The notes under the pieces are model-generated. The model was not told the DNA's origin. It saw only the letters and a program-made list of their open reading frames with translations, and made no database searches. Of a stretch of DNA of 64,000 bases, positions 2,533-40,913 are shown one piece after another. The position numbers were made by a program, and so were the translations under genes. The DNA is from Yuukianura sp. NJ FZ-2021 (lineage: Eukaryota). The stretch spans positions 3,782,001 to 3,846,000 of the forward strand of contig CM102287.1 in assembly GCA_046563655.1 (NCBI GenBank), in the 5' to 3' direction. The first letter of the stretch is position 1. Each line of letters starts with the position of its first letter.

Positions 2533-5500
2533 TTGCGGAATAGGACGCACGAAGATGAAGATGAGGAAGATGCGATGTGTAACCATGGAGAATTGAAAAA
2601 GAAAATGGCATCTTCCAAGTAATTTCCTAAAGTGGTTTTCATCTTCCAAAAAGCCAAGCCCAGTCTTCTTTTATGTTCCTGTTTTCAAGTGGTTGTGATT
2701 GGACTTCAAAATGCTGCAGCACTTGAAAATTGTACTTGAAAAAAGCTACAGTTGAAAGCACTAGTTGAAAAGAGTGGATTTGCAGTAAGGTAGGAATGCT
2801 GTGGATTCCTTTGTTGTTTTTCCATTGTTCTTGTACCTGTTGATGACTTGATTACAACTAATAATTTTATTATCTCACCTCATCTCTATCAACGCACAAC
2901 TTAACTACACCATCATTACAACAAATTCCAAACACTGAAAAAAACGTGTTTTTTTGAAACTTGCAAACTCAAAAAACGTGTTTTTTGCAATTTAAAACCA
3001 AGTCGACGTCTCTCTTTTAGCTGCTTTTCTGCAATAAGGGAAGAATATTGCCATTCAGAACTAGTTAAGAAATTAACTTTTCTCAAAATTTTCAAATTTC
3101 ATTTCGTTTCCGAATTTTGGTTTTGAAATTTCGAAGTAGTATTCAGCTCAATATAGGAGTATTATGGAGGGTATTGAACTAAAGTCAATTGCTACATCTT
3201 TAGCAATTTTTCTGAGAAATTAGTACTGTGAAAAAAACTAATTTTATTAGAAATTAGTACGGTAGAGAGTGGCTCTTTTTTCTACAAAATTTTTCAAAAT
3301 TGAACTAAAAACGAGCCCAATCTTTTCTACAGAATCTGAAATTCAGCAGAAATTTTTTCACCAAAATATAAACAGATTTTAAAATGAACGATTGGGTAAA
3401 CTGATTTCAAAGTTTATTTTCAAGAATTGGAAATTTTTTAGGAACGAATGTTTCCGTTTTTTTTACTTCTTTTTTCTTTTCGTTTTTTTTTGAAAAAAAT
3501 GGATTAGTTTTTATTTGAGAAGATAGTTCCATTTAAGGAAGAGGGGAGGAAGAGACTTTGAAATTAATTGTTCCTGCTTCCTTTTAATAAGTTGCTTCGT
3601 AATGATGCTTTAATTAAAAGTTCCTCCACTACAAAAATTTCCCCCTCTTTTCAACTTTTCCCGCTCTTTTCAAATTTTTCAACTAATTTACGAATGTTCT
3701 ACGCTCAGGAATGTCTGTTCTAAAAAGTGTCATTTCCCTCCCCCTTTGTTCAAACATTCACTTCACTTGAAATTTAAAAAAAAAAGTTTAACAGAAATAT
3801 TTTTAACTTCAGGTCGTTGAATGTTAATTTTGCATCAATTTTCAGAAAAGCTAGAAAAAAAAGTACTAAACAGTTGAGTCTAAACTGTTTTTTTAAGAAA
3901 AGTCTTTAGAAATTGAAATTACTAAAAGGAAACAAAAATGTAGTACAAAAATTAATGTTTTTTTTTCTGTCATTTCTTCATTTTTGACCAAAAACTATAT
4001 GACCAAAAAAAATATGAGCAAAAAAGTGACTTTTTCAACCTTGTCAGGTACCGTCCAACATTGACATGTCACCTACCCTATGTTATAGACATGTTAAGGT
4101 ATGTCCATGTCCCATGTGTCAAAAAACATGTCAAGTGTCATGTCCCATCAAATATGGTCAACTGTGACATGTCCATATTCCGCCTGAGATCTGTCATTAC
4201 ATTTTGATCTTGTTAAACTTGTCCGAAAAGTCAAAAAGTTAACTTTTTGTTCAAAAGCGTCAAAAGTCAAACTCAAAGTGACCGACGACTGTCATTCACT
4301 TTCAAATTCCTCAAACTGTAAAACCATTTTCAGAATTTATCTTTTTCCAAAAACGTGTTTTTGAAAAAGGTAAATTTTGGAAAAGGAAAGTTTCCCACTA
4401 TCAGTAGGGGACTTTGGTAATGAGCGATTGACAACCTTTTAAGGGCCCCCAAACAATGGGACACTGGATGACACACTAAAAAATTTGTCGCTCCTGCTAA
4501 GTCTCCAAAGTTTGTTCAAAGGGCCACCTAGGTATTGGGAGTAAAGGGCCCCCTCCCCACAAGGGGAAGGGGAGGGGGCCCTCAGGAGTTGACGAAAACA
4601 ATGGGATGATAATAAACCACAGAGAGATCACAACAGGACCAAGGGATCCTGTGTCCACTTGGTACTCCACCTCTTTCCCACGACGCCAAGAGGGGACCCC
4701 TTGAAGGGCCCCCCACTCAAGAATGTCCACTGGATGATTATCATCACGATTTGAGTTGTCTCCAGAGTCCCATTACTTGTGGCCAAGGATCCAAATATGG
4801 CCAAGGACCAAAGTGGGCCCTTATAAATCCTTCATGTTTGAAAATTCAAAAAAATAGTTCCCGGGCACCCTTAAAAGTCAGAGATCTAATCTAGGTGAGT
4901 TTATGGCCCTGTACATGACCAGCTACTTTAAGCTGACTTCTGACCTCACAAATTTGAAAAAAAAAATTCAAAATTCAAAATTTCGAAAACAATTTTTTTT
5001 TCAAAATGCTAAAAAGTTTGTCTAATTCAATCATGCTCCAAAAATTTCCGACCTAATACACCGATTTTGAAAATTTTTTTCCGAAAAATACTTTTTTTCT
5101 GAACTGACGTTCTTGTTCTAAATTTTTACAAAATGCAAAACAGAGATGACGGACGTCGGGGTGTGAACTTGTGTTTAAAAATCTTTACTCTTTTTCAAAA
5201 TTTTGGTAATTTTTAGAACAGACTTTTTCTAACAAAGGGCCCAAACAGCTTCGCAGCTCACCGCGGTGGCGTCCCTTAGACTTTTTCTTTCGCAAAAGTC
5301 AAAAAGTCAAAACACGAAAGGTAAACGTCGGGGGAGCCCTTAAAGGTGTTTAAGGGTCCCGTTGTTGATCCTACTTAAGTCAAAGAACGTCTCAAAATAT
5401 TTTCTAAACAGAACCTTTTCCAAAAACTTTTTTTGAAAAAGTCCGCACCCATTTTACCTTGGTTTGTATTTTGTTTACACCGTGTCATAATTCACTCCAA

Positions 5501-7696: not shown

Positions 7697-9113
7697 AGGA
7701 GAAAACAGATAAGCTGTGGTGGGGCGGCGGAAAATAAAATTTTATGAAATTTACAGACTGATTTGCTTTTTAGACGGTTGAAAAAAGGGAAATTTTGAAA
7801 AATTTTGCCAATACATTTCAGTAGTTTCCTTAAGGTGATATCCTGTATTTAAAGGATTTGGACAATTTTTGAATTTCTTAAAATTTTGAAATTTGAAATT
7901 TGAAAAATTTTCAATTTGGGAAAATTTTGAACTTGGAAAAGTTGATGTTGATGAGTAAGTTCCTGAAGGAAACGAATTAATAATCCCGCTGATTGCCTAC
8001 ATCTCTACATCACGTTTTTTTTTCTTTGTACATGAAATGATCATTTCCATGTCTGAGTTATGACCTTTGGTCATGCAAGTAATGAACAGCTTGTTTTTCA
8101 AGCCAAGGGCCCCCTGGAATTTTCAAAAAACAAGTTTTCATAAAAAGTTTTTAGGCCCTTGGATTCCGTAGAGTGGACTTGAGGCAGAAGGGAGTCCATT
8201 TTGAAAGTGGACTTGAGCCAATGAGAATAAGGGGTCCTAACATGTAGACTCCAAGGCTCTCTGTTCATCTGTTACGAAGAACACAAAGGAACAGTAATTA
8301 AGGGATATCCGAAGGGAGCCTTCAAGGCTCCCCTCATACGTACGTGCTCCGCCGCTTGATTTTTGGTTTCAAATTTTCCCTCCAGGAAATTTCAGGATGG
8401 ATGACTCTGTTTTTACTTTTGAATTTGAAAACTTATTACGAAAGTCCCCTAAGGGCTCGTCCGAAATTGATACCTTCCCCCTCCCACCCCTTTTCCAGTC
8501 ATCATCATCAACTTCAGCACACAAAAAAACAAAAAAACAAAAAAAAAAACAAATTTAAAATATGAAAAAAAAATTAAAAAATTTGAATTTCCGAATTTCG
8601 AAATCTAAATTTTCAAAATTCGCCTTTTAATATCAACAACGCAACGTCCGAGACACCTACAACCTACAAAGTTTTGAAGTTTGAGAGAAATTCTTTTTAA
8701 AATTTCTGGCTGGTGGGTGACATAACTTTTCAAAGAAAAAAAAGTTTTTGAAAAGATGTTGTGCATCCCTGAGCGTTTTCTAAGGGTCCCTTGGGTGCTT
8801 GGAAGGGAGCCCTTGGTTGATGGTCCTAAGTCCCTGGCAGCTGTTACATGATCTTATGATTAGGCTAGGTTTAAGGGCCCAAATGGAGTGGGAAAACAAA
8901 GGGGCCCTTCCATTTTGAATTTTGAAGTCCCCACCCAAGGGTCCCCCTGTCGTAATAAAGAAGACTTGTGAAGTCTCTTCTGACAAGGGAAGATGAGTTA
9001 CTGCTCTCTCCCTTGGACGGATACGGCCATTTACCATCGCTTTTTAAAGTGCTTATTATGAAGACATACCACCACAGTAATAACATAACTCTCTCTACAT
9101 GCAATGGAAACCA

Positions 9114-9352
9114 TTACGAAATGGAAATTTAGCATAAGACTTTATGTTATGTTGAGAAGATAATTTAGGATAAAAGTATCCCAGGATAATTCTGGGACAA
9201 AAATATCCTAACAAACTAAATAAGAATATTTACTTTCTCCACACACAATAAAGAACGTTACAAAATGGAAATTTTACTATAAGGCTTTAAGTTATGTCGA
9301 GGAGATAATTTAGGATAAAATTATCTCAGGATAATTCTGGGATAAAATATCT
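9114..9352. repeat. Diverged ~95-bp direct duplication with internal GGATAA sub-repeats
   Basis: 9114-9207 and 9258-9352 align closely (atggaaattt..ataag.cttta.gttatgt.gag.agataatttaggataaaa.tatc.caggataattctggga.aaaa). Confidence 0.85.
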
Positions 9353-9843
9353 CCAAAATCGTTCCTCTGATCACAAAAATGCTTCTTTGTGTTCCTACTG
9401 TGTTGTGGCACTAACTCCGAATTTGAAAAATTTGAGAATTTCAGTGCCAGAAAAGAGTTCTTTGTCTACTACCCTGGAGAATGAGCATAAAATCTGAAAA
9501 TCGGTTGCTTTCTCCGGCCTCAGCTTTTCAAATTTTCAAAAAAAAATTTCAAAATTTTAAAATTTGCGTTGATGTGAAATTTGAATACAGAAAGAAATAT
9601 TGAAACGTTGATTAATTCCTCACAGTGAAAGCAAGACGTGAGTGTGGAGGGATGTCATGTGTTAATTGTCCATGAACTTGAAGGCTGCCCGTTTCATTTT
9701 AATGGCTGCCGTTGAATTGCAATGTTGAAGTTCTTGTTTTCTTTGTTTACTTTCAGATGATGAGGACATCAAAGGCGAAACTCCGTAGATTGCACAATAT
9801 AGCTCAATTTCTATACAGAGAAGGCGACTCACCCACCGAGGAA

Positions 9844-9895
9844 CGATTTGTAACAAGACTCGGGATTGGTCCTCGGCTGATCCGAAGAGGCGGAG
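9844..9895 (+). promoter_or_regulatory. Upstream module of the en-like gene: CGATTTGTAACAAG-N8-TTGGT-N12-CGAAGAGGCGGAG (CCAAT-like and GC box)
   Basis: Same blocks, spacing and relative orientation as 27831-27883 upstream of the inv-like gene. Lies ~570-610 bp 5' of the ATG. Confidence 0.65.
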
Positions 9896-10261
9896 TCACG
9901 GCGGTTCCACGGCTCCACCTTGGCTTGGAAAAGTGTGGAATGAAGAGATGCGGGATAGCCTGGTCTCGGATTCTTGACAGGCCGGGGGGAATGGGAGGTT
10001 GAGACTTGAGATCTTGTTGTCAATTTCATCATTTCAAAACCTCCCTTAAGCCACCGTGTCCAAAATCTGACATTTTCAAAATAAACGAACAAAAAACGGG
10101 ACACACTGGAGCTGAACTCTTCATCTAAAACAGAACGCCGCCACGGTTTAGGCCGAAAAGGAATCAGATTGAGCAGGGGACTGTCAAATCCTCAAATCAC
10201 TGATTGTTTACACGTCATCTCGTGAGGACTCACTTCCAGGATTTCAGTGAAATGGACAAAG

Positions 10262-10323
10262 GGAGGTCAACTTTTGACCTTTGACATACCCACAGGTCAA
10301 CTTTTGACCTCTGACATCTCCAC
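10262..10323. repeat. 2 x 30-bp tandem repeat with AGGTCA/TGACCT half-sites just 5' of the en ATG
   Basis: The unit aggtcaacttttgacct(t/c)tgacat..ccac is repeated twice. Confidence 0.8.
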
Positions 10324-10456
10324 TTTTATTGAACTTGGCGTGAACAGTATTGTTTTACCTACATTTTTTGGATTTTCCAAGGTTCGTCCCAGTTGTCAAT
10401 CATCCTAGTGTTCTAAACTTTGGTGAAACTTTGTGAAAACTTTGAAAACTTTTGTG

Positions 10457-12356
10457 ATGCACCTTGTCACGCGTCCAAGCATGTTGACCTTGACGGTAGA
10501 ACGACTCGTGGGGTCAAGTGGAACTGATAGTGGACATGACAGGATGTCAATGTCACCCGAATCTAGTGACATCGGCAGCGAATCTTCCCGAAGTCCGGTG
10601 ACACAATCCGGAACTTCACCTTCGTCAACTCATCACTTCACTTCACACAAGATCTCTCTACTTCTAAACAGCGACAAACCAACCGATAGGTCACCGGGGT
10701 CATCCCCTGACCTCGAATCGTCGTCAAGGCAACTAAATTTTAGCCGTGACGATGACAACCACAGTCCCTGTGTCGTTCCTGGTCAAAGGTCACCCGTTAG
10801 TGACAGTGGACAACCCGCCCCGGGCGAAGTCCAAAACCAAATGAACTTTGAAACTGAAAGTACCGTCAGACCTACTGCGATTCCTGTCCAGGATGAACAC
10901 GGATCTGAGCAGAGTAGACTTATGGATGGTGACAATTGTAACAACAATGGTGGCAACAGTGACAATGGTGGCAACAATGGTGACAACGACAGACCACCGT
11001 CAGGAGCCAGCGGTGGATCTTCCACCTGGAGCAGTAGTTGGGGGGGCCCTTATTCAGTAGCCTCATGTTCATCAAATCACAACACATCTCATAATAACTC
11101 AAACAGCAACAACATAACTCATAACTCATCATCGAAACACCTCAAGTTCTCAATCCAGAACATCCTGCGAGCGGACTTTGGTCAACGACAACGTCCAAGG
11201 GCCCCCGTCCCTCAGTCATTGTACTCTCCGAACAATAGTGACAATGACAGGGGTCGTGTGACCGAAAGACCACAAAAGAGACACCACAGTCCACGCAACA
11301 TCTCAGAAGACTCAAACAGTTCTTGTGCCAGCAGCAGTCGCAGGGAGGAGGTCGTCGATGAGTCCAAAGTCAATCCAGAAGTACCCAAAGGGCCCCTGCT
11401 CTGGCCCGCTTGGGTCTACTGCACTCGATACTCCGACAGACCTTCATCAGGTAACCCCACTTTTTCAAAAAACTGAAATTTTAAAAAAGTTTTCAAAATT
11501 TCACCCCATGTCCCTTACAAGGCCCTCACTTCACCCTTTGCTCGTTGTTCCGACTAATTTCTATTTTGCTAAGCATAAGCTTGCAGTTAGAAGCAAAAGC
11601 TTCTTCAGGATTTTGGGATTTCAATTAGGAAAACACGTTTTTTTCAATTTTTAAATTTTTCTGACAATTTTGATTGATTTGGTCATAAATTTGTAGTTAG
11701 GCGAGAAGATGCGATTTTGTGATACGAATCTTGAATGTTGATAATAAGATTAATCGAGACCAATAACTGTCAGCTTACTGTGCTAAGATGTTAATCGACT
11801 TGTTCAGAGGTGTTCAAACTTAAGTGGTTTTTGGTCTAATCTGACTTGTGATAGATTTGACCTCGATTTGTCCAAAGGTCAAAGGTCAAATGCTTAACTT
11901 TCTCTTAATTTCTTGGTTTTCAGGGCCAAGGTCAAGGAGAGTTCGAAAGAAATCGGAAAATTCAAGGGCTCCGGCGGAAGCTGTTTCTTCCGTTTCCGAT
12001 GAAAAACGACCGAGAACTGCGTTTACTGCTGAGCAATTGGGGAAATTAAAGCAGGAATTTGAGGAAAACCGATACTTGACTGAAAAACGACGACAAGATT
12101 TGGCCCGTGACCTCAAATTACATGAAAACCAGATCAAAATTTGGTTTCAGGTGAGGAGAACAGCAGATTTTTTAAATTTTTGAAAATTTTCAAAGAAATT
12201 TTCATTTTTGGTTTGAATTTTTAGAACAAGCGAGCGAAACTGAAAAAGTCGTCGGGGCAGCGCGGCGGCCTGGCATTGCAATTGATGGCTCAGGGACTCT
12301 ACAATCACTCGACGGTGCCAATGGACGAAGATGAGGAAGACTACTTACCGTGCTGA
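10457..12356 (+). CDS. en: Engrailed-family homeodomain transcription factor (engrailed-like paralog, no RS microexon), 3 coding exons, ~450 aa
   Basis: Exons 10457-11450, 11924-12150 and 12225-12356 with GT-AG introns give an intact frame. Motifs: EH1 [11 protein letters not shown]2 [21 protein letters not shown], homeodomain [60 protein letters not shown]5 [15 protein letters not shown]. The start could be 10457 or 10481. Confidence 0.95.
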
Positions 12357-13195
12357 AAATTTCGAATTTTCAAATTCAAAAAAGGAAAAATTCTGAAAAA
12401 TTTGAAATTTTGGTCTCACTGTTTCCTCCCAAATTGTGTCATCATTTGAACAACTGTTGCTGTGGCTGGAACAACTTCCGGTTCTAAACAATACTCAAGC
12501 AACAATCTGCCCCTTCCATCAGTAATTTACTTCTTCCCCACAAAATACTTTCTATTGTTCTCAAATCCTAACGTAAACAATGCTCTCTAAAGAAACAAAA
12601 CCTAATCTAAAAGCATAACATGAAAAACATAGCCTAACATGAAACCTAAAGTTAGAAACACACAATAACGTTTCAACAATTTCACAAGTGTCAACTGTTA
12701 ATTGTTTAATTTATTTTAATGTTTGTACATAAGCTTCATTTTTTTTTAGAAAAGATGCTCCGTTTAGTACAAAATCATGTAAGTAGTTAAATCACTTTCG
12801 ACCTTTGACATTTCCTTCTATGCAGGTCACGCAACGAAACGAAAAAAGCGTAGAAATCATTCCAAATTCATTTTTTAGAAACAAAAACAACATTTTAGAA
12901 CTGAAACTTTTTTAAATTCTTTTTTTAAAACATTTTTTGTCTACATGGATTCTTATAGGCGGTTGATTTCGAGTCAAGTTTTAATTGTTATGCAATTTCA
13001 TTATTAATCAATGAAAAACTAATGTTAGTGAAAGTTAATTAAGGTAATATTATGTTAATTAAGGTTAGGCTGAGACTTAATTGAGAGTTAATTAACTTAA
13101 GGCTAAGACTTAATTAAGGTGAGGCTAAGAGTTGATTAAGCTAGAATTAGGGCAGAAGCAATAACACACAATTGAGAATGTGAAGTAAATGGAGC

Positions 13196-13244
13196 GGAGG
13201 GAGTAACTACTAAATTTTGGAGGGAGTAACTACTGAATTTTGGA
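13196..13244. repeat. 2 x 23-bp tandem repeat carrying the dispersed GGAGGGAGTAACTA motif
   Basis: ggagggagtaactactaaatttt followed by ggagggagtaactactgaatttt. Confidence 0.85.
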
Positions 13245-15383
13245 GTGAAAGTGCTATATAAAGTGAAAGTTAATAAAGAAAGCAAAAGCTAATAGAGAAA
13301 TCCCCACAACCAATTTTCTCTCAAATGGAATCGTGAGATTAGTTGGTTCCTTTTTTCGGAAGGAAGTTTCAAAATTGCCAAAAATTTTATCACCTTTGAC
13401 CCAGACGAAGGGCAGAAGGAGAAAGGAAAGAACTTTCCTAATTTTCCAATCCATTTCACAATGATTTTTGGTGGAAGTGATGACTTTCTCCAAAGAAAAT
13501 TTTCCAGAATTTAGTTTCTCCCGCGAACACGATCATCCTGATACTTTTGAAATTGTTCCGTTCAAAATGCATGAACATGCTCAGCGGGAAAAACATAACA
13601 CGACTTTTAATGTTCCTTTTTCGTGTCTGTTTTGAAGATATGGATTTAATGGATTTGTTTACCCTACCAAAAGGAAACAAATTTTCACCAACTTTCACCC
13701 TCCCCTTACATTCATGTTTTCATGTTTCAAAATTTAAAAAAAAATTGTATCTTTTGAAATTTTATTTCGTATTTTCATGATTCTGAAGTGCGCACGGAGT
13801 GTAAATACTGCAACTGTGAAGTGAAAGTAAAATTTTGGTACTCAACTTAATCGAAAGTTTTGAGTGGCGGAAAGCCGGCTTTTTCATCAGAATTTCGGAT
13901 TCCTGATTTTTGTCTGCGACAACAGACTGTGCGATGTGTTTTTTCCGCGGAAAAATGTTGAGGAAGAAAAAAAAATGAAGAAAGCGTTTTAAAATTGGCC
14001 TGTTTTTGTAATGAGGGTCAACTTCACCAACTTTTTTATTTTGAAAAACTTTGTTTTAAATTTTTTGAGTTTTTTAATTTAGAAAAACATGTTTGGAGTG
14101 GAATGTGGTGATTGGGAGGCAGTTGAGGTCTCGTTTGAAGTGAGTGGTGTTGGTTGTTGTGTGGATAATGGAACAAGATCACTTACCGACAGACACGAGT
14201 GAAGAAGAGGGGGACTTAAGGGACCTCACACGAAGACACTCACACAAAAAACACACAAAAGTCAAGATGTGGCTTTAAGAAGACACTCATTTGTCAGGCA
14301 CTGTGACACTAATGCTGCTGCGCACCGCTCAAGAGGCGCCCTTCATCCGCACCCCAGCGGTCCTTAAGGGCTCCCGCTCCAAAATTATTAGTTTAAACAC
14401 TCCCATATTCACTTTCAAGCACTTAAACGTCAAAATTTTAGTCAAATTTTTCGCACTTTACTAGGCGAAACGCCGCCACAACTTTTCTGGAATATTCATC
14501 ACCTAAATTTTTCTTTGAACTTCAGTTCTGCATTGCGGACAAGCTCAAATTTTAAAAATTTCCAAAAAATTTTTTCGAATTTTCGTTTTCAAAGGTCAGT
14601 GACATGCAAATGTGATTCAGGTCAATGACCTTTGGACCTCCCCCCGTTTCTCAGAACTGTCTACACTATTTATCACTTTTTCTTTTTCTGTGACCTGTCA
14701 CCCCAGCTTTTTTTTTAATTGCTCTTTCCGGGGCTCGTGCCTTTCTCTTTCTCTCCGTGGAATGTTTCATAATGCTCCGAATTCTTAAATTACCCGGGTA
14801 GCTTAGAGTCCCGGGTTTTCAGTGGCTTAATTAGGTGTCATGTTCTCCCTCTGTCTACCATTGAACTCCAATTAGTTCCACTCTTTCTCCTCACACCATC
14901 CCAAAAACAAACACAAAGTGAAAATGAATCCCACTTTATTTGACACTTCCACAACACAATGACAGTAATTGTACTTTTTCTCTTCTTTTCAAACTCTGTT
15001 CTAAATTTTAATTTTCTAAACACTCTTTCAACTAATTGTTTAAGAAAAACGAAAGGGTGAGGAGAACAATAAAAAAAATGGGGATGGGTTAGGAACTAAG
15101 CCTTCAGTTTTCTAAACAAAGACAAATTTTTACTCTAATTCTTGACTTTTCAACTCTAAATCGAAACTAAAGCGATTAGGTTAATGTTAGCTTACGATTT
15201 TTTAAGATAAGCAATTAATAGTTTAGTTAACTATAACATTGTGTTAAGTATGATTAAAGTTAACTAAGATTAGGTTTTAGGTGAGGCGTTGATGGAGCCT
15301 TTTGGTAGTGATTTTAATACTGTTCGAATTTGATTTCGGTGGGACTGGAAAAAAATTGCATTTTTTGAAAATTTTCGAATTTT

Positions 15384-18300
15384 TCAATCCGAGTCTTCGT
15401 CGTCGTCATCTCCGCAGCCACGAGATTGAATTGTAGAGTGGTTATAGAGTCCTAAGACAAAAAATCTTAATTAGTTTTAATTAATTAAATGTAAAACTAA
15501 TTACAATTAAAACTAATTGTAATTAAAATTAATTGTTAAATAAATTATGTTGTAAGGCCTTGCTTCTTGGGAAATGTTAAACAATTTCTCAACTAGTCAA
15601 GAAATTTGAGATGATGCATTTAAATTTTGTAAATTTTAGCAACTAACTTTTACCTTGTGCACGCAGTTGCTCCGCCAGTCTTCCGCGTTGACCGGATGAC
15701 TTTTTTAACTTGGCCCGCTTGTTCTAAAAATTTAAAACAAACGCAAAATTTCAAATTTTTGAAGATTCGAATTTAAATTTCAACTACATTTCATTCGTAC
15801 ATCGCATTCGTTTCATTTTGATGATTTCAAAAGTAAGAAATTTCGAAATTATTGACATTTGACCGAATTTTCTTTCCGTCAATCACTTTGGCTCTTCAAT
15901 CATTCTGTTTCTGACACCAAAATAATTTTTGATGCCAACAAACCAAACTTTTCTGTCCTGTTTTTTCTTTAAACTTTGTGTAAAATTGTCTTATTTTCTC
16001 AAACAATGTGTCATGATTGGTTAAATTATTTGAGAAGTTGTGAAACCACAAATTGGGCTCATTTTCACCTCAAAAGCAGAACACACAGCAACAAAACCAA
16101 GCCCATCTTTATTCTTCTACCGTTCAAACTTTGCCGCTTGAAAGGAAGACAAGCACGAAGACAATATAAAATTATTCAAATCATCTTCAATCATCCGAAG
16201 AAGACGCAAACAAAACATAATGCTTTGATCTTTGTGGAATTTGATACAAAAAATCAATAGACTGCGAAAAAGGTTGCAAAAAACAACAAAAGGGCAAAAA
16301 GTTTTGCAAAAAGGAGATTTTTTGTTCACAAAGTTAAGTTCAAAGAAAGGAAGTTAGGGCTGCACCCACAGGAGAACTTTATAATTCGCAAATTGCAAAT
16401 TCTTTGAACTCATTTGCATAATTTTCGCACGCAAAAGAGGAATGACTCAATTACTGTATTACTGTAGGTTTTAATGCAATTATGGTTCAGCAGGATGCAT
16501 AAAATTGCAGGAAGGAAAAAATTTAAACACAAAATTCCTGTAGGAAGTGAACTTTAAAATTGTAATTTTTGTTAATTTTATGGGAAAAATGAAGTGAGAA
16601 AAAAAGTAAAATTGGTGTTGTAATTATGTAATTAGGGTTAAGCAATTACTTGGGTAATTACGTTTAAAAGTAATTAGTTAATTACTTTTACGAAGGTGCT
16701 AATTACTCTATTGAATATAATTACTTTAGAAGAAAAAGAAGTAGAGTTGAGAAAAGATGCAGCTACTGTATTGTAAAAGTGTTAAGATGAACTACTTTTA
16801 AGTAATTAAGTAATTACTTTTTGAATGTTAATTACTTAATTGTAATTAGCTCACCTGAAACCATATTTTGATTTGGTTTTCGTGGAGTTGCAGATCATTG
16901 GCCAAATCCTGCCGTCTTTTTTCTGTTAAATATTTGTTTTGCTCAAATTCCGTTTTGAGGCGGGAGAGTTGGTCGGCGGTGAAAGCAGTTCTGGGCCGCT
17001 TTTCATCCACTTCTTTCTCCTTCTGCTTACGAGTACGCCTAGCCCTTGGACCTAAAATTCATCAACACATTTTACCTCAACAGATCAAAAGATACACAAA
17101 CTTTAATCAACTCGTGAGGAAACTGTTAAAAAAAGTTTTGTTAATTACTCAATTTATTACACTCGTTTCTTTTGCATCTCTGTCAGAAAGTGATCTGTGT
17201 CGAATTTGCGTAAATGCTTTCTCCCCTTTCTCTTTGGAATTGGATCATCTTCATCACAGATCACATTTCATGTTAACTCAAATTTCAATCAACCGAGGTC
17301 ATGTCAGTCATTCAAAATTTAAAACGTCCCGCTCAAGTACAATAATGTTTGTTTAACACTTTCACCCCCAGAAGGGGTGAGAATCTGAAAAGAATTTAAT
17401 AAAAACAACCCTCTCTTTCTTCCCTCTCAAAAATTCGCTGTCTGAAGTGTGAAATTTTGGAAAAAGGGGGGAAACAATTCGAAAACGAAAAAAGAATGGA
17501 ATTCGAGTTCTGTTTGAGTTTTCAAAACAAATTGTGAATTTTGAGATATTTGAAATTTTGAAAATTGATATTTCAGTTTGACCTTATGATATTTCAGTCA
17601 GAACTACGCTTAAATGCAAGTTTACCTATGCCAATAACTGTGTTTTTGTTTAACGGCATTGAATTGTGACAATTTGAAATCAGATTTTGGCTCGATTTTG
17701 TTGAAAATTTGTGCAAATTGTTTCTTTGTTGGTCATACTTGTTGACTTTTCGTGTCAACTTTTTGTGTTGTAAAAAAAAAAGAAGACAAAAGTTGGCTGC
17801 TCTTTTGTCGTGTTCATTTGTCATTTTTTGTAAAATTTTGAAGGACTCAGCAATGTCATCAGTCATCCGGTTTCCGTTTTACAAGGGAGTTTGAGTGACA
17901 AATGATTTGAACTGAGAAGAGTAATTTGTTCATTGTCTTGTCACTAACTTTTCAGTTAATTCCAATCATCATAAGTCACCTTAACTTAACAGTTAAGTCA
18001 ACCTCCATGCATCACTTCCCATCATCATCATCATACTCACTATCATCATCATCATACTCACAAAGGCAGCATGCAAAAGACACATCAAGGAAATATCTGT
18101 CAACTCAATTGTCTTTCTCTCCTTCAAGTGACAATCACTACTCAAAAAAAAACTTGCTCAAAATGAAAATTATCCAAAAAATTTTGCCCTGAATTCTAAA
18201 TTTGTGTAGCGTTTCAGAAATGAAACAAGATTAATTTTGATTCCTATTTGAATTTTAGTGTTAGAATTTCTTGTAAAAAGTTTTTGGTAAACGTCAATTT

Positions 18301-21300
18301 AAAATTTTCCAAGATATGTTTGAGGCAACTTTCTCCGGTTTTATTAGCTTCCATCTCTGTTTGAATAGTGTTAGTTTTTCCTTTTTTTTTAAAGTTATTA
18401 GTATTAGTGAGGCCCGGGTTTTTGGCGGGTTTTAGCTTTCAAAAACCCGGGTTTTGTGTTTTGGCGGTAGTATTTGCTTGGAAGTGGGTGTGTTTAATTA
18501 ATGGTTTTAAGAAAATGGTGAATTATGAATGAGTGTTATAACCCCTCCTTTCCCTGGTGTGTAATTTCCTCTGGCACTGCAGAAACTCTGTAATTGAAAT
18601 ATGGAACACTCCGTGGCAGAGGGAGTAACTAACTATTAAATTTTAACCCCTTTTTTCTTCTGTGCAGAAATTAATTGTTATTTGACCAAAACCTAATCTA
18701 AAACTAAGTTAAACCTAACAACCTAACTTCCAATTGATTAAGATTAACGGTTTACTCTCAACCAAAAGTAGATCAAATCCAATCCCGACCACGCCCAACC
18801 TTACGCACGAACTTTGACAAAAAATGAACGCAAAGCTTCCTGCCAAAAATTTTGCTTCCCGTTACATTTCAAGGTTTTTGATTCAAAATTCAAAAACTAA
18901 AAAAAAACATCCTCAAAAAATAATTTTCAAATAAAATCCTGTCACTTTGATGCATGTTTTGTGACATGGATGAAGTGTAATGTTAAGGGTCCCTTTGTCC
19001 CTTAAGGGCACGCCCTATGTTACCTTGTTTGGGGTCTAATTTGTTTCAATTAGATTTCGAAAGGACTTCAGAGCAACTTTGTTTTACTTACTTCTTCCTG
19101 GAATCAACAGAACAAAAAACACAACATCAAAATTCATTACAAATTCAGGGTCTTAATTACTACAAGTTAATTAACACTTTTAATTAATTAACTTATTAAA
19201 ATTAAAAGCTGAGGGAACCAGAATCTAAGAAAACTTAAAAAGATTGAATTCACCCCACAACTTTTTGTGTTCGGCGTGGAAATTTATAGCACTTTCACTT
19301 TGTTTCAAAAATTTGCTTTCACCATTCACAACTTGACTTGCAACATCCATTTTTTTTCTAGCAGGTCACATTGACCTTTCATGTCATTGACCTTTCATGA
19401 GGTCATTGACCTTTGTCCAGCGGAGGTCAATGACCTTACACCTTCAGCACTAAACAGAAGCTGGCAGAAGGTGTTTTGCAGAAGAGTTGTGCTGGCGATT
19501 GGGCTAATTAAGTTGAGTTAGGATGTTCTTTGTAGGTGGCAACTTTATAATTACTTGTTCTTCCGTGCCTTTTGGACATACATGGCACTTCTACAGCATG
19601 TTCAACTTTTTTAAAGCAAGAATTTTAAAAAAAGTTGTTTTGCCATTTAAAACAAGGATTGGGTTGCAGACGGACCACGCTGTACAAAATATTAACATGA
19701 AAACGGCAGATGATACTCTTGAGGAAGTGTAAAAACAGGAACAATTTATTCAACAAAAGTTGTTAAGGTTGGTATCTAATCTTAAGTGTTGAAATTAATG
19801 GAGAAACAGTAATAATTATTTATAATATATTATAATACATTACAAATAATTGTCGAAGAATAACTTATTAATTGAATATCACTTCTGATTCAATTGGAAA
19901 TGGCTCTGAGGCTACTGCAGTCTAAAGAAAAAAAGTAAATGAAGATCTCTTCTTATCTGTTGCATCTCCAGCAACAGGTTTTTAGTAAAGTCATAAAAAA
20001 GTTGATCTTTTAGCAAATTCTTGTTCAATTAAAAGATTAACGGCACGAAAAAAGTTGAAACTGAAATTGATAACTCAAGTAGGAAAAAATTCAAAATTGA
20101 ATTTCAAGCCTTTTTAAAAGTACAAAACTAATTTTTCTCTATTAAAATTTTATTGTCTCGTTTTTAGTTTTTATTTTGTGTTTGAATCCTCCGGTTTCAA
20201 AATTTTTTCTAAAGTTTAAGTAAGAAGTGAATCATTTGGTAAGGTAGCGCGTTTCTTTGCAGGCAGAATTTTGATCTTTGCGAATTCTGAATTTCAATTT
20301 TGTAAATTTTAAATCTTTCATTTCCATAGTTTGGAATTTTTGAATTTTGCATGAATTTTAGTTTTTGCAGTGACGAAACACCATTCAAAAATGGCACTGT
20401 TTCTTCTGAGAGCAAACTTTTCCAAATCTGAACTAGTTAATTAACATCTGACTCTTAGAACGTGGAGATTATGGAGTTATTCACTTATTCAGCCCATAAT
20501 TTTTGAAATGGAAGTTTGAATTTCGAAATTTTATGAGGTTTTCAAAAACTATTCAGTTTGTAAAGTGATGTTTGAGGTTTTTCAATATTTTGACAAGGCA
20601 GAAAAAGGGAGAGCAGACAACAATTGAACAAACGCTACTGCTTGAGTGGCCCATTTGAAACCCGCTGCTGCAACTCCAATTTTTTTTTTCAAAATCTTGT
20701 TTTTTTTTTTTCGTTTTCTAAAAAAAAATTTTTTTTGAGTTTGTGCCTCAACAATTGTACCACAAACCGAAATTTTAAACTTGATTCCACAATTGAGAAA
20801 AATTAGAAGAAAATTTAAAAATCTCGTAGACTTTTATTTCAGTCTAACCCTTAACTTTGTCATGTTTCGTTAAAATCTGCGTGTTTCGTTCTCGTTTTTG
20901 CAGATTTCAAAGAGGAAATGCTGTCAGTGTGCTAAAAGTGAGCCCTTCATGGAGTACCCTCTTTGACTGTTGACTTTGTGGGCCCTTAAGGGTCTTGAGC
21001 TGACAATTATGAATGAGAGTGTATGTTATTGTGACGTGCATGGAATGTCTCTATTAAGTTTAAGCCACACAAGTGGAAATGGTTGCGGTTTGACGGGTTT
21101 CGGACAGCCGGACTCCTGGACCCCACCTGAACACATCCACCTTCCAACATCATCCACTTCCTCTCCCTACAACTTACAAAACGCACTTCAAAATGTCATA
21201 ATATGCACTAAAAACTGCACAAACACAAAAATATGCATAAGTTTCTGCTCAATTTAAGCACAAAAGTGACAAAAGTTGCACAAAAACCGGCAAAAAGTGC

Positions 21301-24300: not shown

Positions 24301-27003
24301 TAAAAATTCTTGACGTGGAAAAACAAAAAATGGTCGATGCGTCCCTTTGTAAGCCCTTGATTACATATCCGAAAACACATCTCTCAACCTCTAAGTCCTA
24401 ACTAGGTCTATGTCTTAAAGGTTACGTTAACATAACATTTGAACCTGTGCGGTCGAAGGCATCAAGAGAAAAAGAAGGGGGACCCTTAAGTACCCTCATC
24501 TTTGACAAGCCGCTCAGCAACTCTTCAATCACTTTTGTATAACAAAACACAAGAGATAAGCCTTCAATTCCTTTTTCTCAAAAGTTGACCTTTGACATAT
24601 GTAACATGTAAATTTTAATTTGACCTTTGACATGCAAAACTTCCGGATTGAGTTCAAACTCTCTCAAAAGTTAATAAACTGGTGCGAGTTTTGGAAATTG
24701 AGTTTTTGCATGACTCAATGTCTATGGAAATAATTGGCAGTGGTGGTGGTCTGAATTATAGATCTCTAAATTTGAAACAACACGACGGGAATTATTACTT
24801 AATTTATAGCAACAGCTACACTACTCCGAGTCCAAGTTTTGAATTTTTTAGAACAAGTTTAGAACAAGGTTTTAGAATTTTCAAAATTTCTAGTCCCGGG
24901 TAATCTTGGCTGAGAATCAGAAACCGAAAAGTCTAAATTGAATATTCACTTTACTCAGACTTTCATGAAATGGCGTGTGGGCGTCAAAGTAATTTACTAC
25001 CCTTAATTAAGTCCATTACACTTTCTCCTGCCAAATTTCAAAATTTTAATTACTTTTTCAAAACGCAAATTCAAAATTTTGAAAAATGTTTCTAGTGTAT
25101 GCAGCGACAGGAACTTTGGAGGAAGCTCAGTTTTTTTCTGCACCGCGGCCGCTCTCATTTCATTTTTCTTTTAGAATTTCCCCGGCCCAGTAAAAAAAGT
25201 GACAAAAATTCAGAAGCACGAAGCTCCTTGGCGACACTGTCACCGATGTCGTCGTGTGCTACTGAATTATTCAACGGTCTCTGAAAGGAAAGTGACCGTG
25301 GAAAAGGATGAGACACCGTGGAGTGACACCGTGACGAAACCTAAATCAACTCAAACCGTTGATAGCTACTTCCTCCAACAATGTCTAAAAGGAATTGACT
25401 CCTGCGCCTTTTCGTGCTTCTGCATTTTAGCTTTACTTAATTTCTGTTTTAATTAACAACATTTTGAATTCTACCGCCACCGCCGCGGTGCAACGGTGAC
25501 AAAACAGCGGTGTTTTCAAGTAAAGCTTTCAAAGCAACGCCAATACGGCAAAAAAAAAATTCCCGTTTTTTTTTGAAAATTGGAAAGTTTTAACTTTCTG
25601 AAATTTTTGGTTATCATCTGAATCTGACCGTCGTTTAAAAAGATTCCAAAAATTCGGATCATGTTAGTAAAAATTTACTATATAGTTTCGTCGAGACAAC
25701 TGAATTATATATAGTAATCTTGAATTAAACTTTTGAAAACCTTCACTAAAAATAAATTTCGAAATTTTATGAATTGAAATTTCGATTTTACATTTTAAAA
25801 AAAAAATTTTAGTATGAATTTTTGAATTGACTTACCAGAAGAAGGGCGATCGCTGTAGCGCGTGCAGTAGACCCAAGCGGGCCAGTTCGGTTCGCCGCCA
25901 GCATCGTCTGACCCTACAGGTTTCGTCGTATCGTCACTCCCGTGACCTTTTGACCCCGATTTGACCCCGAGGTCACTTGAGGTCACGGGTGAAGTTGACC
26001 CCTTGCCATCTGCAGACTTCTCTTCATTTGACTTTGTTTTGGAAGTTACACTGCCCGGTAATTGTGGAAATGGCGGAGACCATTGATGGGGAACGCGGCG
26101 GTGGTGGCTCTGTTTCCGGTTGGTGGCTTTTGAGCCCTCATGTGGTGGTGGAGGGCGGGAGAGGTCAATGGGAATGACATGATCTGGTTTGAGCCGTTTC
26201 GGTAAGTGGTGATCTTGATTCGAAGATTCGGTAAATTTCCGTTTCGGTTTCGAAACCGGTATAGGATGGGAGTTATTAAAGTGAAAGTTTAAAGGTGGGG
26301 GTGGTGGTGGGACGGAGCCACTTTGGCTGGGGAGGGGCAACCGCCCGAGGCCAAAGTCCGGACGCAGTATATTTGCAATTGAAAATAGTAATGACGCTTG
26401 ATGGTGACGCTGCTGCTCTTGCTGAAAAGAGTTTCCACCAATCAGGGCATCGCTGAGGCTGCTTAAGGGATTGTAGGGGCCTGGAAGGCCCTTAAATGAA
26501 GCCGAATCTTCAGATGAGTAGTGTCGGTTCCGAGTTCCGGTTTCGGTCGGAGTCGAACTCCGAACGGAATGGGACGAAGACGGAGACGGACTATGACTGG
26601 CCGTTGTCATCGTAACGGTACTCATGGAATCGTCGACGTCAATTTCAGCGTCGGTTTCGTCTGCGTCGTTTTGACTTTGTGTCTCCAATGGACTGCTGAT
26701 GCTGACTCCGCCCCCTTCCTCAGTCGGAATGAAATTGCGAATTCCATGAAGCAGCATTTTGGAACTAAAATTTCCATTACCTGAGTCATTGTACAGAGTC
26801 ATGTCGCTGCGTGACCGTGGTTCGGCGGTGCGTCGACGCAGTGGATCTCTTCGTCCACCCAAACTGACGCTCATGAATGTCGCAAGTGGTTGCGTCGATT
26901 CTAAATTGAGGGAACTCAGAAGTCCGAAGGCGGGAAACTGGAGTTGGAGGGGACGCGGATGTTGAAGCTGCGAAAAAACGCTGAGTGACCCCAGAGGGCT
27001 CAT
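15384..27003 (-). CDS. inv: Engrailed-family homeodomain transcription factor (invected-like paralog with RS microexon), 5 coding exons, ~502 aa
   Basis: Minus-strand exons 27003-25836, 19097-19092 (microexon), 17051-16855, 15723-15654 and 15451-15384 total 1509 nt in frame. Motifs: EH1 [16 protein letters not shown]2 [17 protein letters not shown](RS)PR, homeodomain [60 protein letters not shown]5 [15 protein letters not shown]. The start codon is uncertain because downstream Mets exist. Confidence 0.93.
19092..19097 (-). CDS. inv: 6-nt microexon (GAAGAA) adding Arg-Ser to EH2 of the invected-like gene
   Basis: The minus strand reads ttttttgttctgttgattccag|GAAGAA|gtaagt: a strong acceptor and a perfect donor. 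Exon 1 ends in G and the next exon starts GT CCA, so splicing gives G|GA AGA A|GT CCA = Gly-Arg-Ser-Pro, the invected PSSGRSPR motif. Confidence 0.9.
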
Positions 27004-27809
27004 TACTCGGTGACCTTTGATCTTGAAATTTTTTGGAATTTTTGAAAGTTTAAACACCGGACATCACTTTTTCAAAATTTCAACGCTTTTCTGAAATTTC
27101 AACTTTAAAGTTGTCTTCCGTGATAAGGTGTTCTGGTCCTAAAATTTTATGGTGACTTTAAGGGCCCTTCAAGTCCTCGTTTTTGTCTTCACAGTTTTGT
27201 CAACAACTTTGTCACCAATTTGTCACTTTTTAGTAAAAGATTGACACAATTTCAAAATTTTGACAATCCGTGGCAAAATTTACGTAATTCGACTTGGATC
27301 GTTTTAAATTGTCACAGTTTTTCTACAAATTGCAAAAATTTGTTTTGAAATTGACAAAATTTGGTTTAAAATCGGCACATTTTTTCAAATTGCTCAAAAT
27401 TCTTGTACGTAATGACACAATTTAGTTCAAAAACAAGCAAAATTACTTCATTTACAAAATGTCACAGCTTGTAACTTTCTCCACTTTCACTCAACACAAC
27501 TTTCGGCTATTGTCACTGCAACTTTTTTTAAAAACTGAAGTTCCTCAGCTCGTAAGTGAGTCGGAGGGCCCTTAGCCGGTACTTAGGGGCCCTTAATGTC
27601 TCTCCTGAGTTAGGAGCAGCAGGAACTGTGCGATGAGTTCTAGCCAAAGTTCAATTACAGACTCCCCCTCTACTAACCTAATGTTTGTTCCATTTGGAAT
27701 TATTGCTTTTCTGGGCAGTGGAGGGGAGACACAAAGTTCTGAGGGACCAAACACTTTGACTTAGCTTCCTCTGCTGCAGTACTTTGCATCCTACGGACAT
27801 TTCGGCTAG

Positions 27810-27883
27810 CTCCGCCTCTCCATTCGGTCGCTCCGCCTCCTTCGTCCACCGTCGCCACCAACGGAATCGCTTGATACAAGTCG
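27810..27883 (-). promoter_or_regulatory. Upstream module of the inv-like gene: CGACTTGTATCAAG-N8-TTGGT-N12-CGAAGGAGGCGGAG plus a second GAGGCGGAG
   Basis: Paralogous match to 9844-9895. Lies ~810-880 bp 5' of the ATG. Confidence 0.65.
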
Positions 27884-30800
27884 GTGGATCCACAAAAGTG
27901 CTGGAAGAGTGGTTGCTCAAAAGTGAATGCTTAATGGAGATGATGATGGAGCAGAAATAGGCACAAAACGAACAGAGAAGTGTGAACACATCAAAAATAG
28001 AAAAAAAGAGAGAATGAGGATGAGCAGATGCTGCGTTTTCGTTTATTGCTTTTTTGTGCTGATCTTTTATCTTCCAAATCTCCCAAATTTTCACTTTTTT
28101 CGTTTTTATGAAATGATTTGTGAAACTGAACAATTTGATTTTTTTTTTGTTAAGGCAAAAAGCCAGTTACAATTTTATTTTCTGCAACTTTGACTTTTGT
28201 TAATTTCGAAAACAGGTCAAATGATCAATCCTTGTGTTCTTTTTTAAAATTTTGAACGAAAATTTCGAAAATGTTTTTTGAAAATATGTAAAGTTGGAAG
28301 TAATCAGTCTAATAGAACAGATGGAATTTGGACAGAGTTTGTCTAATGGTTCTTTTCACTTTGCCCAAATGATTTCTCTTTCAATTTTCACTTTTAACGT
28401 TAAAAGTTTTCACTTTTCACTTTTCGCCTGCTTTTACTTTCACTTTGTATAATCTCCGCTCTGCTTTGAATTCAAAATCAGAAGTCACCCTTCTCTTATG
28501 GCTTTTTGGAAATAAATTGAATTGGAATTCTTGGCTCATCCTGAGGTTGGTCGGGGAATCGAATCCTCGCTGCTCCAAAATATTTCTGGAAAGAACATTA
28601 GTGGCTTTTCGAAACTAGATTTCAGGTTAAGCCAAAAACGTAACTAACCTAACCAGAATCCTAACTAACCTAATCCTACTTGAGAATTCAGGAACAAGGT
28701 TTCCCGGATTTTCAATAAAGGCTAATGGAACTTTTACTCTAAAAAGTGAACTTGAAGGGAGACAGGTTAGGTTGAAATTAGGTTAGTTAATACAAGTTAG
28801 GTTAAGGAAAGTAAAAGTAAGTAATGAAGCCAAAAGAGAACAAACGGCAGTTGATTTTGAAAACTCTTTTTCTCTATACTTTCTCCCAACCGTTATTTCC
28901 TTTTTCCCGAAATTGGATTCCTGAAATGCCTTTCCGCTGACACCAAAGAAAACATTTTTCTCCGCTGACTTTCCCCTGTTTGTGACTTTCTCCGGTGACT
29001 CTTCCCCCTTTGACTCTTCACTTGATTCCACCCCCCCCCCCTCTCTAACCCCCTCCCCCCTTCGATTCAATTTCTGAATCAAGTTGAGTCGAAAATTGAC
29101 TCAAGCCGAGGATTCTATTAATCCCTTCCCACTTTTCTCGTTTTGGCTGGAATTCGGGGAAGTTAAACCTAAAGGAGACAAATTCCGATGTCAACAGTTT
29201 CATTTTCACCCAAACACTAAACATTCCACTTTACTTTCAAAAAAGAGAAGTTTTCAAAAGAAGTCTGACTTTATTAGCTGACGAAACCTAACTTGTAAGG
29301 TAGTAGAACTATTTTAGTTTTTAAAATTTAGAACACAAGTTAGGTCAAATTGACCTTTCACCTGGGAAAGTTTTTTGGCGGGAAATGAATTGAAAGTGAA
29401 AGTTTCAATTTCGAAGTCAATTTTAGAAAATTGCTTTCTCTTTCTGCCGTTCAGTTTTTTATCGTGACGTTTCTCGGCTCAAAACAAAACAAAATGTTTA
29501 GATCGCTCTAGGGCAAGTAATACAGGTGAAAGCAAGGCCTATCTCTGTTTTTTTTTTTTTGTAAAAATTTTTGAAAATTTGGAAAATTTGAAATTTGGGT
29601 TTTGGCGCTTTCCAGAGCAGTAATTAATCAAGGTGCGGAGTGTGACAGGTCAGAGAGGTCATGATGCGCTGAGAGGTTTTTGGTGAGAAATGGGAGATCA
29701 AAGGGGGAAGAATTCCTTTGATGTGCTGATGCTCCATCCATCCTTCTCTGTCACTTCTCCGTCTTTTATTTTGAACATTTTGTTTGAACAGGAATTTAGA
29801 ACAGAATGTGTTTGAACAGAGCATTAGTCAAGTGGAACACTACTCACTGCTAGTGGGGGACAATGGAACATCAACCAAAGAGCACTTAAGGGGTGACAAC
29901 ACCAAAAGACGCTCATCTTCACACGTACTCAACAAACAAACACTACCTTGAGTGCCAATTCCGAACAACATCAACTGCCACGCCTCAACTATTCACTTTT
30001 TACCAAAAAAAATGAATTACATAATTCACTCTTTTCAAAATTTCGAAAAACTCATTTTTTCAAAAATGATTCTCATGACAGTCCTAATTCTTAGATACAC
30101 CGAACTCTCCGTTTTACTGAATTTGTCACAGTTTTTGTAGAAAGTTCTTGGAGAAAGTTGTGGATTTCTGCATTTTAGTTTAGACTTTGCGAATTTCTCC
30201 AATTTTTTTCTTCTTTTTTTTTGAACTTTTGTGTACTGATGTGAAATACGATGCTAGTTTTTTGAATTTGGCGAAGTTTAGAGAAGTTTATGAGGTGCAA
30301 GTTGATTCCAAAATGGTTTTTGTAGTGTCGTGACCTCAGTTGACCTCTGGCTGAGCAGCAGTGGGTAGAAGGCATAAGGAGGAATGTTGATTGGAAGAGA
30401 TTTGTTTTCCTTTGGATTGCAGAAGGGGTGAACTTTTAAATTTCCATTGTGTTGGTCAAACAAATGAAAATTGGGGGCGCGGGCAGGGCGGGTGAAATTG
30501 AAATTTTTGTATTTGGTTCCAAAAGAGATGAAGGGCGGAGGTTGTCTTTTCACAATCATTTCCCAATCACTAAATTATAACATCCACAAGCCACAATCAA
30601 TCCACTTGTAAGCTATTACAGTTTGGCCAAAATGTTAGGCTAACCTGAGTTAGTTTAGTGGCTCATCGGCTGATTGTTGTTGATTAATCGACCTTTGGCT
30701 GCCTTTGGAGGAAGTAACTATCAATTTGGAGAGACAATTGGAAGTGTGATGATGGCTAATCATCTTTTGAGTCTAGAACAAACAATAGACACCCTTAATT

Positions 30801-33978: not shown

Positions 33979-35921
<1,943 letters not shown>

Positions 35922-39719: not shown

Positions 39720-40913
39720 ATGGATTTTGCCAAGAAACAATTACTGAAATATGGGTGGAAAGAAGGTAAGATTTATATTGCGTTTCTAAACTTGATTTGT
39801 GATATGATTTTTGCAGAAGTTACTGCGAAGCGAAGTATGGAACTTGCTTGTTAATTGAATGTTATTTTGACAGGGGAGGGTCTTGGAAAGGACGGGAACC
39901 AGGGAATAGCAACAGCGTTGAAGCCGAAGTATAAACTTGGAAAAGAAGGAATGGGATTTGACATGTCAAAGGAATTGGTGGATACATGGTGGACCAGATC
40001 GTACCAAGACTCACTTTCCAGAATAAACATTTCATCGGTAGAGGCTTCAACCTCTTCACATCAAGAAGAAGACGAAGGTGTTCGAGTGACCTTTGTCCAA
40101 GATGAATCTGGGGGAGATGAAATGTCAAAAATGAGACGAAGAATGATGAAATCTAACTTCCGAGAATTTGCAAAAGTGAATATTTTAAGATTTTTCTTTT
40201 GCTTAGCTTTACCACCGGTGTTCTTTTGTTATTTTCTGAATTTCCAGATTTGATACAAATGATAAATAAGTTGACTCTTCGATACTTCTTGAATTGTTTC
40301 AGGGTGCTGTACTGGACAATGGAATGATGGTTGAAGACTCAGACTCAGAGACTGATAGCGGAATTGCTACGCCCGGATCCTCAACTTCTACCTCAACTAA
40401 CATGTCAGATGAAGATTTATTTAAAGCCTGTGGTGGTAGAACTGCGCACAAGTGAGTTTCTATCGATTTTTATCTAAATACTTCTATCAAACTGTCCAAA
40501 CTTGAGATAAATGATAAACTAATTCTTAAATTTATCATTCCAGAGCTGCCAGGTTTGGTCATAAATTGAGTGGTAAATTAGCTCGGATCGCTGCACAGGA
40601 GCAAGCCGAACTTGAAGCATTTCAGCACAATGTAAAATCCAGTAGTACGAATCATTCTAATACTCAAGGTGTCAAGTCGTCACGTAAAAAGCGTTCGCAC
40701 GATGTGGAAGTTGAAGAGGAAGTTTTGCATGTCACCAAAGAAAAGAAGCGACGGAAGAAAAGTTCTAAGCATTTTGAAGTAGAAGAAACCTTGGTAGAAT
40801 CCAGTTCCAGCTCCGTCGCGATCGGTATTGTAGAGGATATGGACCATGAGCCAAGTTTCGACGAAGAAAAGCGACAGAAACGTAAAAAGAAATCCAAAAA
40901 GTCGTCGAAGTAG
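39720..40913 (+). CDS. GPATCH4: G-patch domain-containing protein 4-like, 4 exons, ~288 aa
   Basis: Exons 39720-39765, 39874-40175, 40303-40451 and 40544-40913. N-terminal G-patch MDFAKKQLLKYGWKEGEGLGKDGNQGIATALKPK...GMG, a WW motif, the SDEDLFKACGGRTAHKAARFG motif and a Lys-rich tail. Confidence 0.9.

Follow-up and report, generated by a model that had tools for sequence, protein, structure and literature searches.

The window, by which we mean the whole stretch of 64 kb that was analysed, contains two engrailed-family genes in convergent arrangement, which we call paralog A (plus strand) and paralog B (minus strand). Exon 1 of each gene encodes the EH1 and EH2 motifs, and the homeobox exons follow downstream (Table 1). 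The start of paralog A was placed at ATG 10457, which is backed by an N-terminus, MH(I/L)V.R..ML.L.V(E/D)RLVG, that is conserved in springtail homologues. This N-terminus is common to the best homologues of paralog A, including proteins of the springtails Allacma fusca and Orchesella cincta. The best match reaches 44% identity only, which points to a springtail-like hexapod as the source. For paralog B, the first ATG of the exon-1 frame (27003) was taken as the start. The first-pass annotation had named A engrailed and B invected. The named insect matches of paralog A exon 1 bear both names, many of them being called 'invected', and the EH1 of paralog B resembles that of loci which were read as termite en-like. 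Judged by these protein resemblances, the two labels may be reversed, and the finding reported below would be unaffected either way. The identities of four further genes in Table 1 are those which we take them to have after reading their ORF translations.

Table 1. Positions of the genes, of the upstream module and of its parts in the window (position 1 is the first letter of the window; remarks are in gene orientation)
Feature	Position	Strand	Remarks
Paralog A, exon 1 (with EH1, EH2)	10457..~11452	+	homeobox exons from ~12001 and ~12225
Paralog B, exon 1 (with EH1, EH2)	~25852..27003	-	homeobox exons from ~17004 and ~15723
Module copy A	9844..9895	+	CGATTTGTAACAAG / 8 nt / TTGGT / 12 nt / CGAAGAGGCGGAG, upstream of paralog A
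Module copy B	27831..27883	-	CGACTTGTATCAAG / 8 nt / TTGGT / 12 nt / CGAAGGAGGCGGAG, upstream of paralog B
Core in copy A	9849..9869	+	TGTAAC-N11-TTGG; ATTGGTCC = inverted CCAAT box; from MAFFT invariant columns and pattern scan
Core in copy B	27858..27878	-	TGTATC-N11-TTGG; GTTGG = CCAAC on the other strand; from MAFFT and pattern scan
GAGGCG of copy A	9887..9892	+	fits RRGGYG (Sp/KLF-type), 17 nt past TTGG
GAGGCG of copy B	27835..27840	-	fits RRGGYG (Sp/KLF-type), 18 nt past TTGG
GC-richest 200-nt window upstream of A	9811..10010	+	-646 to -447 from ATG; holds the module
GC-richest 200-nt window upstream of B	27713..27912	-	-909 to -710 from ATG; holds the module
Alpha-tubulin gene (presumed)	34323-35921	+
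Lysine-rich protein (presumed)	39855-40913	+
Coiled-coil protein (presumed)	41116-43239	-
RWD/IMPACT-like protein (presumed)	44093-44705	+

Upstream of both paralogs, the first-pass annotation had described a module of three blocks with conserved spacing, and both copies were found exactly as it quoted them (9844-9895 on the plus strand and 27883-27831 on the minus strand). Its description of the copies was also accurate in the details. Block 1 is identical at 12 of 14 positions, and the two spacers keep their lengths of 8 and 12 nt in both copies while none of their 20 positions is identical. Both copies stand in sense orientation, 562-613 nt before ATG 10457 in the case of A and 828-880 nt before ATG 27003 in the case of B, and CCACCGA lies just 5' of block 1, or overlaps it, in the two of them. 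In addition, TTGGT is common to both copies, and block 3 matches at 13 of 14 positions with one 1-nt indel. In copy B, a second GAGGCGGAGC stands a few nt further downstream. The composite pattern that the annotation had proposed for the module (TTGTAWCAAG-N8-TTGG-N15-18-GAGGCGGAG) had two matches in the 64 kb, which are copies A and B, and none in 100 dinucleotide shuffles. When up to two mismatches were allowed, four matches were observed against 7.27 expected from the shuffles, i.e., the relaxed pattern was no commoner than in shuffled DNA.

The annotation had further held that the module is not the product of a recent copying event, and the coding sequences bear this out: at the fourfold-degenerate sites of the homeobox, A and B are identical at only 2/10 and 2/11 positions, which amounts to saturation. 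The EH2 stretch is somewhat more alike than the homeobox, with 5/9 fourfold sites identical. Since neutral sites are saturated between the paralogs, any non-coding identity retained between them reflects constraint or chance and not recency. A and B do not differ over the first 23 nt of the EH2 coding stretch (11402-11424 on the plus strand in A, 25884-25862 on the minus strand in B), which may represent a small conversion tract or codon bias. Four sequencing runs (X1, X2, X3 and X5) gave DNA contigs over the window. Run X3 was 97-99% identical over both module sites, with 5 other letters in 9593-10235 and 45 in 27364-28852, and is too close to gauge constraint.

The similarity of A and B was then judged over their full upstream regions, i.e., 1456 nt (about 1.5 kb) upstream of each ATG. 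Scoring was weighted by composition and low-complexity DNA was masked, and the null consisted of 1456-nt segments of unrelated DNA from the window (74 against A and 72 against B). The module was the top local alignment of the two regions, with a score of 24.5. However, a score of at least 24.5 was reached by 11/74 unrelated segments against A and by 18/72 against B, corresponding to p of about 0.15-0.25. The chained-block statistic gave a similar picture, the null reaching the real pair in 14/74 and 12/72 cases with masking and in 28/74 and 37/72 cases without it. Four other gap settings brought no improvement (from 4/72 to 68/74), and A compared with reversed B scored 45.8, above the 39.9 of the real pair. 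With standard blastn, the only matches between the two upstream regions were of low complexity and A/T-rich. A match of the quality of the module, when picked by eye, is thus expected roughly once in five such comparisons. A second similarity between the two regions pairs 9782-9803 on the plus strand (TCCGTAGATTGCACAATATAGC) with 27797-27776 on the minus strand (TCCGTAGGATGCAAAGTACTGC). It is not collinear with the module, since it precedes the module in A and follows it in B.

A metagenome scan with exon-1 protein alignment yielded 76 engrailed-family loci with 355,497 nt in total, several of which were taken, from the beginnings of their proteins, to be termite-, ant- or annelid-like. Five loci were of springtail type, namely L001 and L002 (A-type) and L050, L062 and L064 (B-type). 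L002 was assigned to the A-type by its N-terminal MLALPVERLLG. Of the 44 loci for which an EH1 motif was detected, only L050 and L062 had the B-type EH1 signature, and L050 aligns to the paralog B protein with 53.9 bits over 256 aa. Usable upstream DNA was available for L002 (ATG 3060) and L050 (ATG 4897) only; L001, L062 and L064 were left out, their contigs stopping inside or just before exon 1. L002 and L050 carry the same metagenome prefix and the same microsatellite type.

The upstream regions of A and L002 scored 66.2 against a null of 30.5 +/- 6.0 that reached the real score in 0/70 cases, and with other gap costs 109.2 against 60.5 +/- 16.9, again 0/70. The two regions are clearly orthologous overall, and a score so far above the null indicates that they are under constraint. 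The collinear non-coding blocks extend from ~9795 to ~10335 of the window (plus strand) and over ~2110-2780 of L002. They include CAATATAGCTCAAT at 9795, ATGAAGAGATG at 9940, GAGATCT..TGTCAATTTCAT at 10008-10029, TCTGACATTT near 10066 and TGATTGTTTACACGTCA at 10201, and conservation at these blocks is stronger than at the module itself. In the A-L002 interval between the flanking anchors, which holds the module, the null reached the real value in 140/400 to 10/400 cases depending on gap costs, that is, from non-significant to marginal. The similarity of the upstream regions of B and L050 was weaker, the null reaching it in 4/70, 8/70 and 18/70 cases.

Our search for the composite pattern revealed that only part of the module is shared more widely. 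The pattern was confined to its two sites in the window and had no match in the 76 engrailed-family loci (355,497 nt), from which GAGGCGGAG alone was also absent; TTGTAWCAAG occurred twice among these loci (L029 and L031), in both cases downstream of exon 1. In L050, however, positions 3942-3966 read TTGTAACA-N9-ATTGGTCC in sense orientation, 955 nt before the ATG and with spacing identical to that of copy A. This locus had first been flagged by a loose motif scan, and its B-type status was established later. TTGTAWCA-N10-TTGGT is found at three places in 419,497 nt, which are copies A and B and the site in L050. L002 retains just TGTAcC and ATTGG of blocks 1 and 2, the same distance apart. 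A near-match with one mismatch at L050 8547 was rejected as a chance match, its flanks being without similarity. In L043 (3664-3681) and L048 (603-620), ~1750 nt upstream of an engrailed-family gene read as ant-like, TTGTATGAAGCGATTCCG matches block 1 plus spacer of copy B at 17/18 positions (blastn E 0.45), which is probably a chance match.

In a four-way MAFFT alignment of A, B, L002 and L050, TGTA.C and TTGG formed invariant columns 11 nt apart. TGTA.C-N11-TTGG had six occurrences in 419,497 nt where 3.3 were expected, and all six were in the window, L002 and L050; when GGCG was required within 10-45 nt, four occurrences were left in the 419,497 nt, which are exactly the four upstream sites. 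The core TGTAnC-N11-TTGG was found in none of the 74 other engrailed-family loci, some of which read as termite-, ant- or annelid-like. It starts at -608 (A), -875 (B), -838 (L002) and -954 (L050) from the ATG. Thus, of the spacing constraint that the first-pass annotation had proposed, TGTAnC-N11-TTGG with a nearby GGCG is kept whereas the full module is not conserved. Its idea of an ancestral engrailed module agrees with the recurrence of the core upstream of both orthologues in a distant springtail; none of the 74 other loci extends this beyond springtails.

The CCAAT-like box named by the annotation is present in three of the four copies as a CCAAT pentamer on the opposite strand, which reads GGACCAAT in A (ATTGG at 9866-9870) and L050 and GGCCAATGG in L002, whereas copy B has CCAAC (GTTGG) instead of CCAAT. 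The Sp/KLF GC box of the annotation fits RRGGYG in all four copies, as GAGGCG 16-18 nt past TTGG in A, B and L002 and as AAGGCG 38 nt past it in L050. However, the canonical GC box GGGCGG was found in none of them, the sequences reading GAGGCGG and AAGGCGG. The RRGGYG match is weak evidence as the motif is short, has a background of 1.23 +/- 1.21 per 550 nt and lies in GC-rich DNA.

How much the shared core means depended on where it was looked for. Among all 4-N(0-20)-4 dyads, seven were common to the four full upstream regions, and only (TGTA,13,TTGG) has at least three G/C; a shared dyad with at least three G/C was also found in 26% of the shuffled and 41% of the unrelated sets (150 sets of each kind). 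Identity around the dyad was 0.37 against 0.30 +/- 0.06, a value reached by 18/120 null sets. The picture was different in the GC-richest windows. The GC-richest 150-nt window holds the core in L002 and L050 or starts 5-14 nt past the first base of the core in A and B. When maximum-GC windows of 200 nt, of 250 nt, or of 150 nt with 30 nt of padding on each side were taken, all four shared (TGTA,13,TTGG), while null sets of such windows from unrelated DNA shared any dyad in 0/1500, 4/1500 and 2/1500 cases. At 100 and 300 nt one window just misses the core, so that two of the five window definitions fail. With gaps of -6/-0.5, 2/300 null islands on the A side and 28/300 on the B side scored as high as the 200-nt windows of A and B aligned to each other; with gaps of -4/-0.25, this was true of 0/300 on either side. 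The similarity of A and B is therefore equivocal over the full regions and significant only when limited to the GC-richest windows.

Weighing these results, we lean slightly towards reading the module as a promoter-proximal cis-regulatory DNA element common to both engrailed-family paralogs. From sequence comparison, a constrained element probably exists, with chances a little better than even; its constrained part is very short (about 9-10 positions), statistically marginal and seen in two species. The core would consist of two short candidate protein-binding sites at a fixed distance, TGTAnC and, after 11 nt, (A)TTGG, the latter being in three of the four copies a putative inverted CCAAT box of NF-Y type, and a Sp/KLF-type RRGGYG site would follow 16-18 nt beyond TTGG (38 nt in L050). 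Such an element would sit within the GC-richest patch or at its 5' border, with the start codon 0.6-0.95 kb further downstream. We took this patch to be the core-promoter region, in which case the transcription start site would lie just downstream of the module. For comparison, an NF-Y box usually lies at -60 to -100 from the transcription start site. The core-promoter words TCAGT, TCATT, TATAAA and DRE had no consistent placement. Fixed spacing together with free spacer sequence (0/20 identical between A and B) suggests that the factors would be in contact when bound next to one another. Both the binding of proteins to the module and the choice of proteins are inferred.

This arrangement is comparable to proximal promoters with an NF-Y CCAAT box and a GC box in that A, L002 and L050 have an opposite-strand CCAAT, three copies have RRGGYG within 16-18 nt, and the sites lie in GC-rich DNA that precedes the gene. 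It differs from them in the CCAAC of copy B, in GAGGCGG instead of GGGCGG and in a third partner, TGTAnC, at fixed spacing. The consensus of NF-Y is CCAAT, and NF-Y should not bind CCAAC. The module is also similar to conserved non-coding elements of duplicated developmental genes, in which short identity outlasts saturated synonymous sites. However, compared with such elements it is very short (about 9-10 positions), its statistics are marginal and it is seen in two species. No prior description of springtail engrailed promoters was found in open-access full text. If real, the module would offer a mutable handle of ~40 bp and three sites on the similar promoters of basal-hexapod engrailed paralogs, one that can be compared with the well-studied case of Drosophila inv and en, which share regulation and whose promoters loop to each other. 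It would then be one of few promoter-proximal site sets that can be traced between arthropod paralogs with saturated synonymous sites. If it is due to chance, nothing is lost, and the genes and their arrangement are ordinary.

Chance resemblance is somewhat unlikely but has to be taken seriously. In that case two GC-rich patches in AT-rich upstream DNA would simply share short words, with a match picked by eye and the cross-species matches being the residue of looking again. The non-significant pairwise tests over the full regions (11/74 and 18/72; 14/74 and 12/72), the four-way tests of dyads and of flank identity, likewise non-significant over the full regions, and the higher score of reversed B are all consistent with it. 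So are the similarly good but non-collinear match of A 9782-9803 with B 27797-27776, the relaxed pattern that was no commoner than in shuffles, and the 17/18 match in L043 and L048, which indicates that such matches arise easily. However, the four real GC-richest windows share a dyad where the null island sets hardly ever shared any, and the A-B island alignment at 200 nt was reached by 0-2/300 A-side nulls. Furthermore, an exact 8+8 match with identical spacing is present in L050, the sole B-type orthologue that has upstream DNA, and in 4/4 regions the GC-richest 150-nt window either includes the core or begins no more than 14 nt past its first base. These last observations argue for a constrained element.

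It is less probable, and in our opinion rather doubtful, that looping or silencing factors assemble on the shared sites and join the two paralog promoters so that enhancers are shared, in the manner of the promoter-associated Polycomb response elements (PREs) of Drosophila inv/en. Those PREs are described as containing Sp/KLF (Spps) sites and are proposed to link promoters and shared enhancers (PMC11042752, PMC4965088, PMC10379775), and the consensus of the PRE factor Spps is given as RRGGYG (PMC10379775). As in Drosophila, short regulatory DNA (here a candidate only) with a Sp/KLF-type site stands just upstream of both paralog promoters. RRGGYG follows TTGG in 4/4 copies, and at both paralogs the element has the same orientation and a similar distance from the gene. 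However, the motif grammar of Drosophila PREs, a cluster of Pho, GAF/Psq, Spps, Zeste and Combgap sites, was absent when 550 nt surrounding each copy were examined. GCCAT of Pho was counted 1, 0, 0 and 1 times at the four copies (window mean 0.54), GAGAG 0, 3, 1 and 2 times (window mean 1.00), and Zeste sites 1, 0, 0 and 0 times, all of which is near the window background. Only RRGGYG was raised (4, 2, 2 and 5 against 1.23 +/- 1.21), which is as expected for GC-rich DNA. Unlike the Drosophila PREs, then, the springtail module has no enrichment of Pho or GAGA sites, and no sequence similarity of the module to insect loci was found among the engrailed-family loci scanned. To our knowledge, TGTAnC-N11-TTGG is not a described PRE motif, and we know of no PRE sequence rules outside Drosophila. 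A related proposal, which we likewise consider improbable, is that the core is an ancient promoter-pairing (tethering) element kept at both promoters since the duplication, with enhancers shared via a promoter-promoter loop. In the springtail it would correspond to the invPRE2-enPRE2 loop of Drosophila, but with other binding sites (TGTAnC, CCAAT-like and Sp/KLF-like).

It is very improbable that the module belongs to a transcribed 5' leader and acts there as an RNA element, by structure or as a protein-binding site. The 0.6-0.9 kb to the ATG leave room for a long 5' UTR, and the DNA upstream of A shows conservation with L002 between ~9795 and ~10335. However, RNAalifold predicted 0 pairs in the four-way alignment and the spacers are without compensatory pairing. 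An Rfam search over 9000-29000 found no family, its only match being mir-3596 (9982-10058), which scored 25.3 bits where the gathering threshold is 96.

Least credible of all is a repeat or mobile-element remnant inserted upstream of both genes. Apart from the existence of two copies, nothing favours such an origin. The composite pattern has two copies in 64 kb, the spacers of the copies have no identical position, and blastn of each module with its flanks (~400 nt) against the window and the 76 loci returned chance matches of 15-25 nt only. Contigs of run X1 had depths of 193.7 over copy B (27446-28081) and of 189.1 just downstream of copy A (9938-10821), the same as the other contigs listed (190-224). 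Copy A itself was covered, among the contigs listed, only in run X3 (9593-10235). A coding exon was ruled out, as copies A and B would be read in different frames.

Several other features were observed near the module and elsewhere in the window. About 150-190 nt before the ATG of paralog A, a unit of ~30 nt is duplicated in tandem (10264-10280 and 10294-10310, plus strand), each unit holding the perfect inverted repeat AGGTCA-ACTTT-TGACCT with a half-site of nuclear-receptor type. Between module B and the ATG, words similar to TGTCAAT, TGACAAT and TGTGACA recur every 20-25 nt over ~27150-27480 (minus strand), and TTGTCAATTTCA in this run is identical to a 12-mer of the conserved block of A (10016-10027). 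Finally, at 13196-13232, 20736 and 25067-25087 the contigs of runs X1 and X2 accumulate and are interrupted, with depth in the thousands and many loose ends, indicating short dispersed repeats in introns and intergenic DNA.
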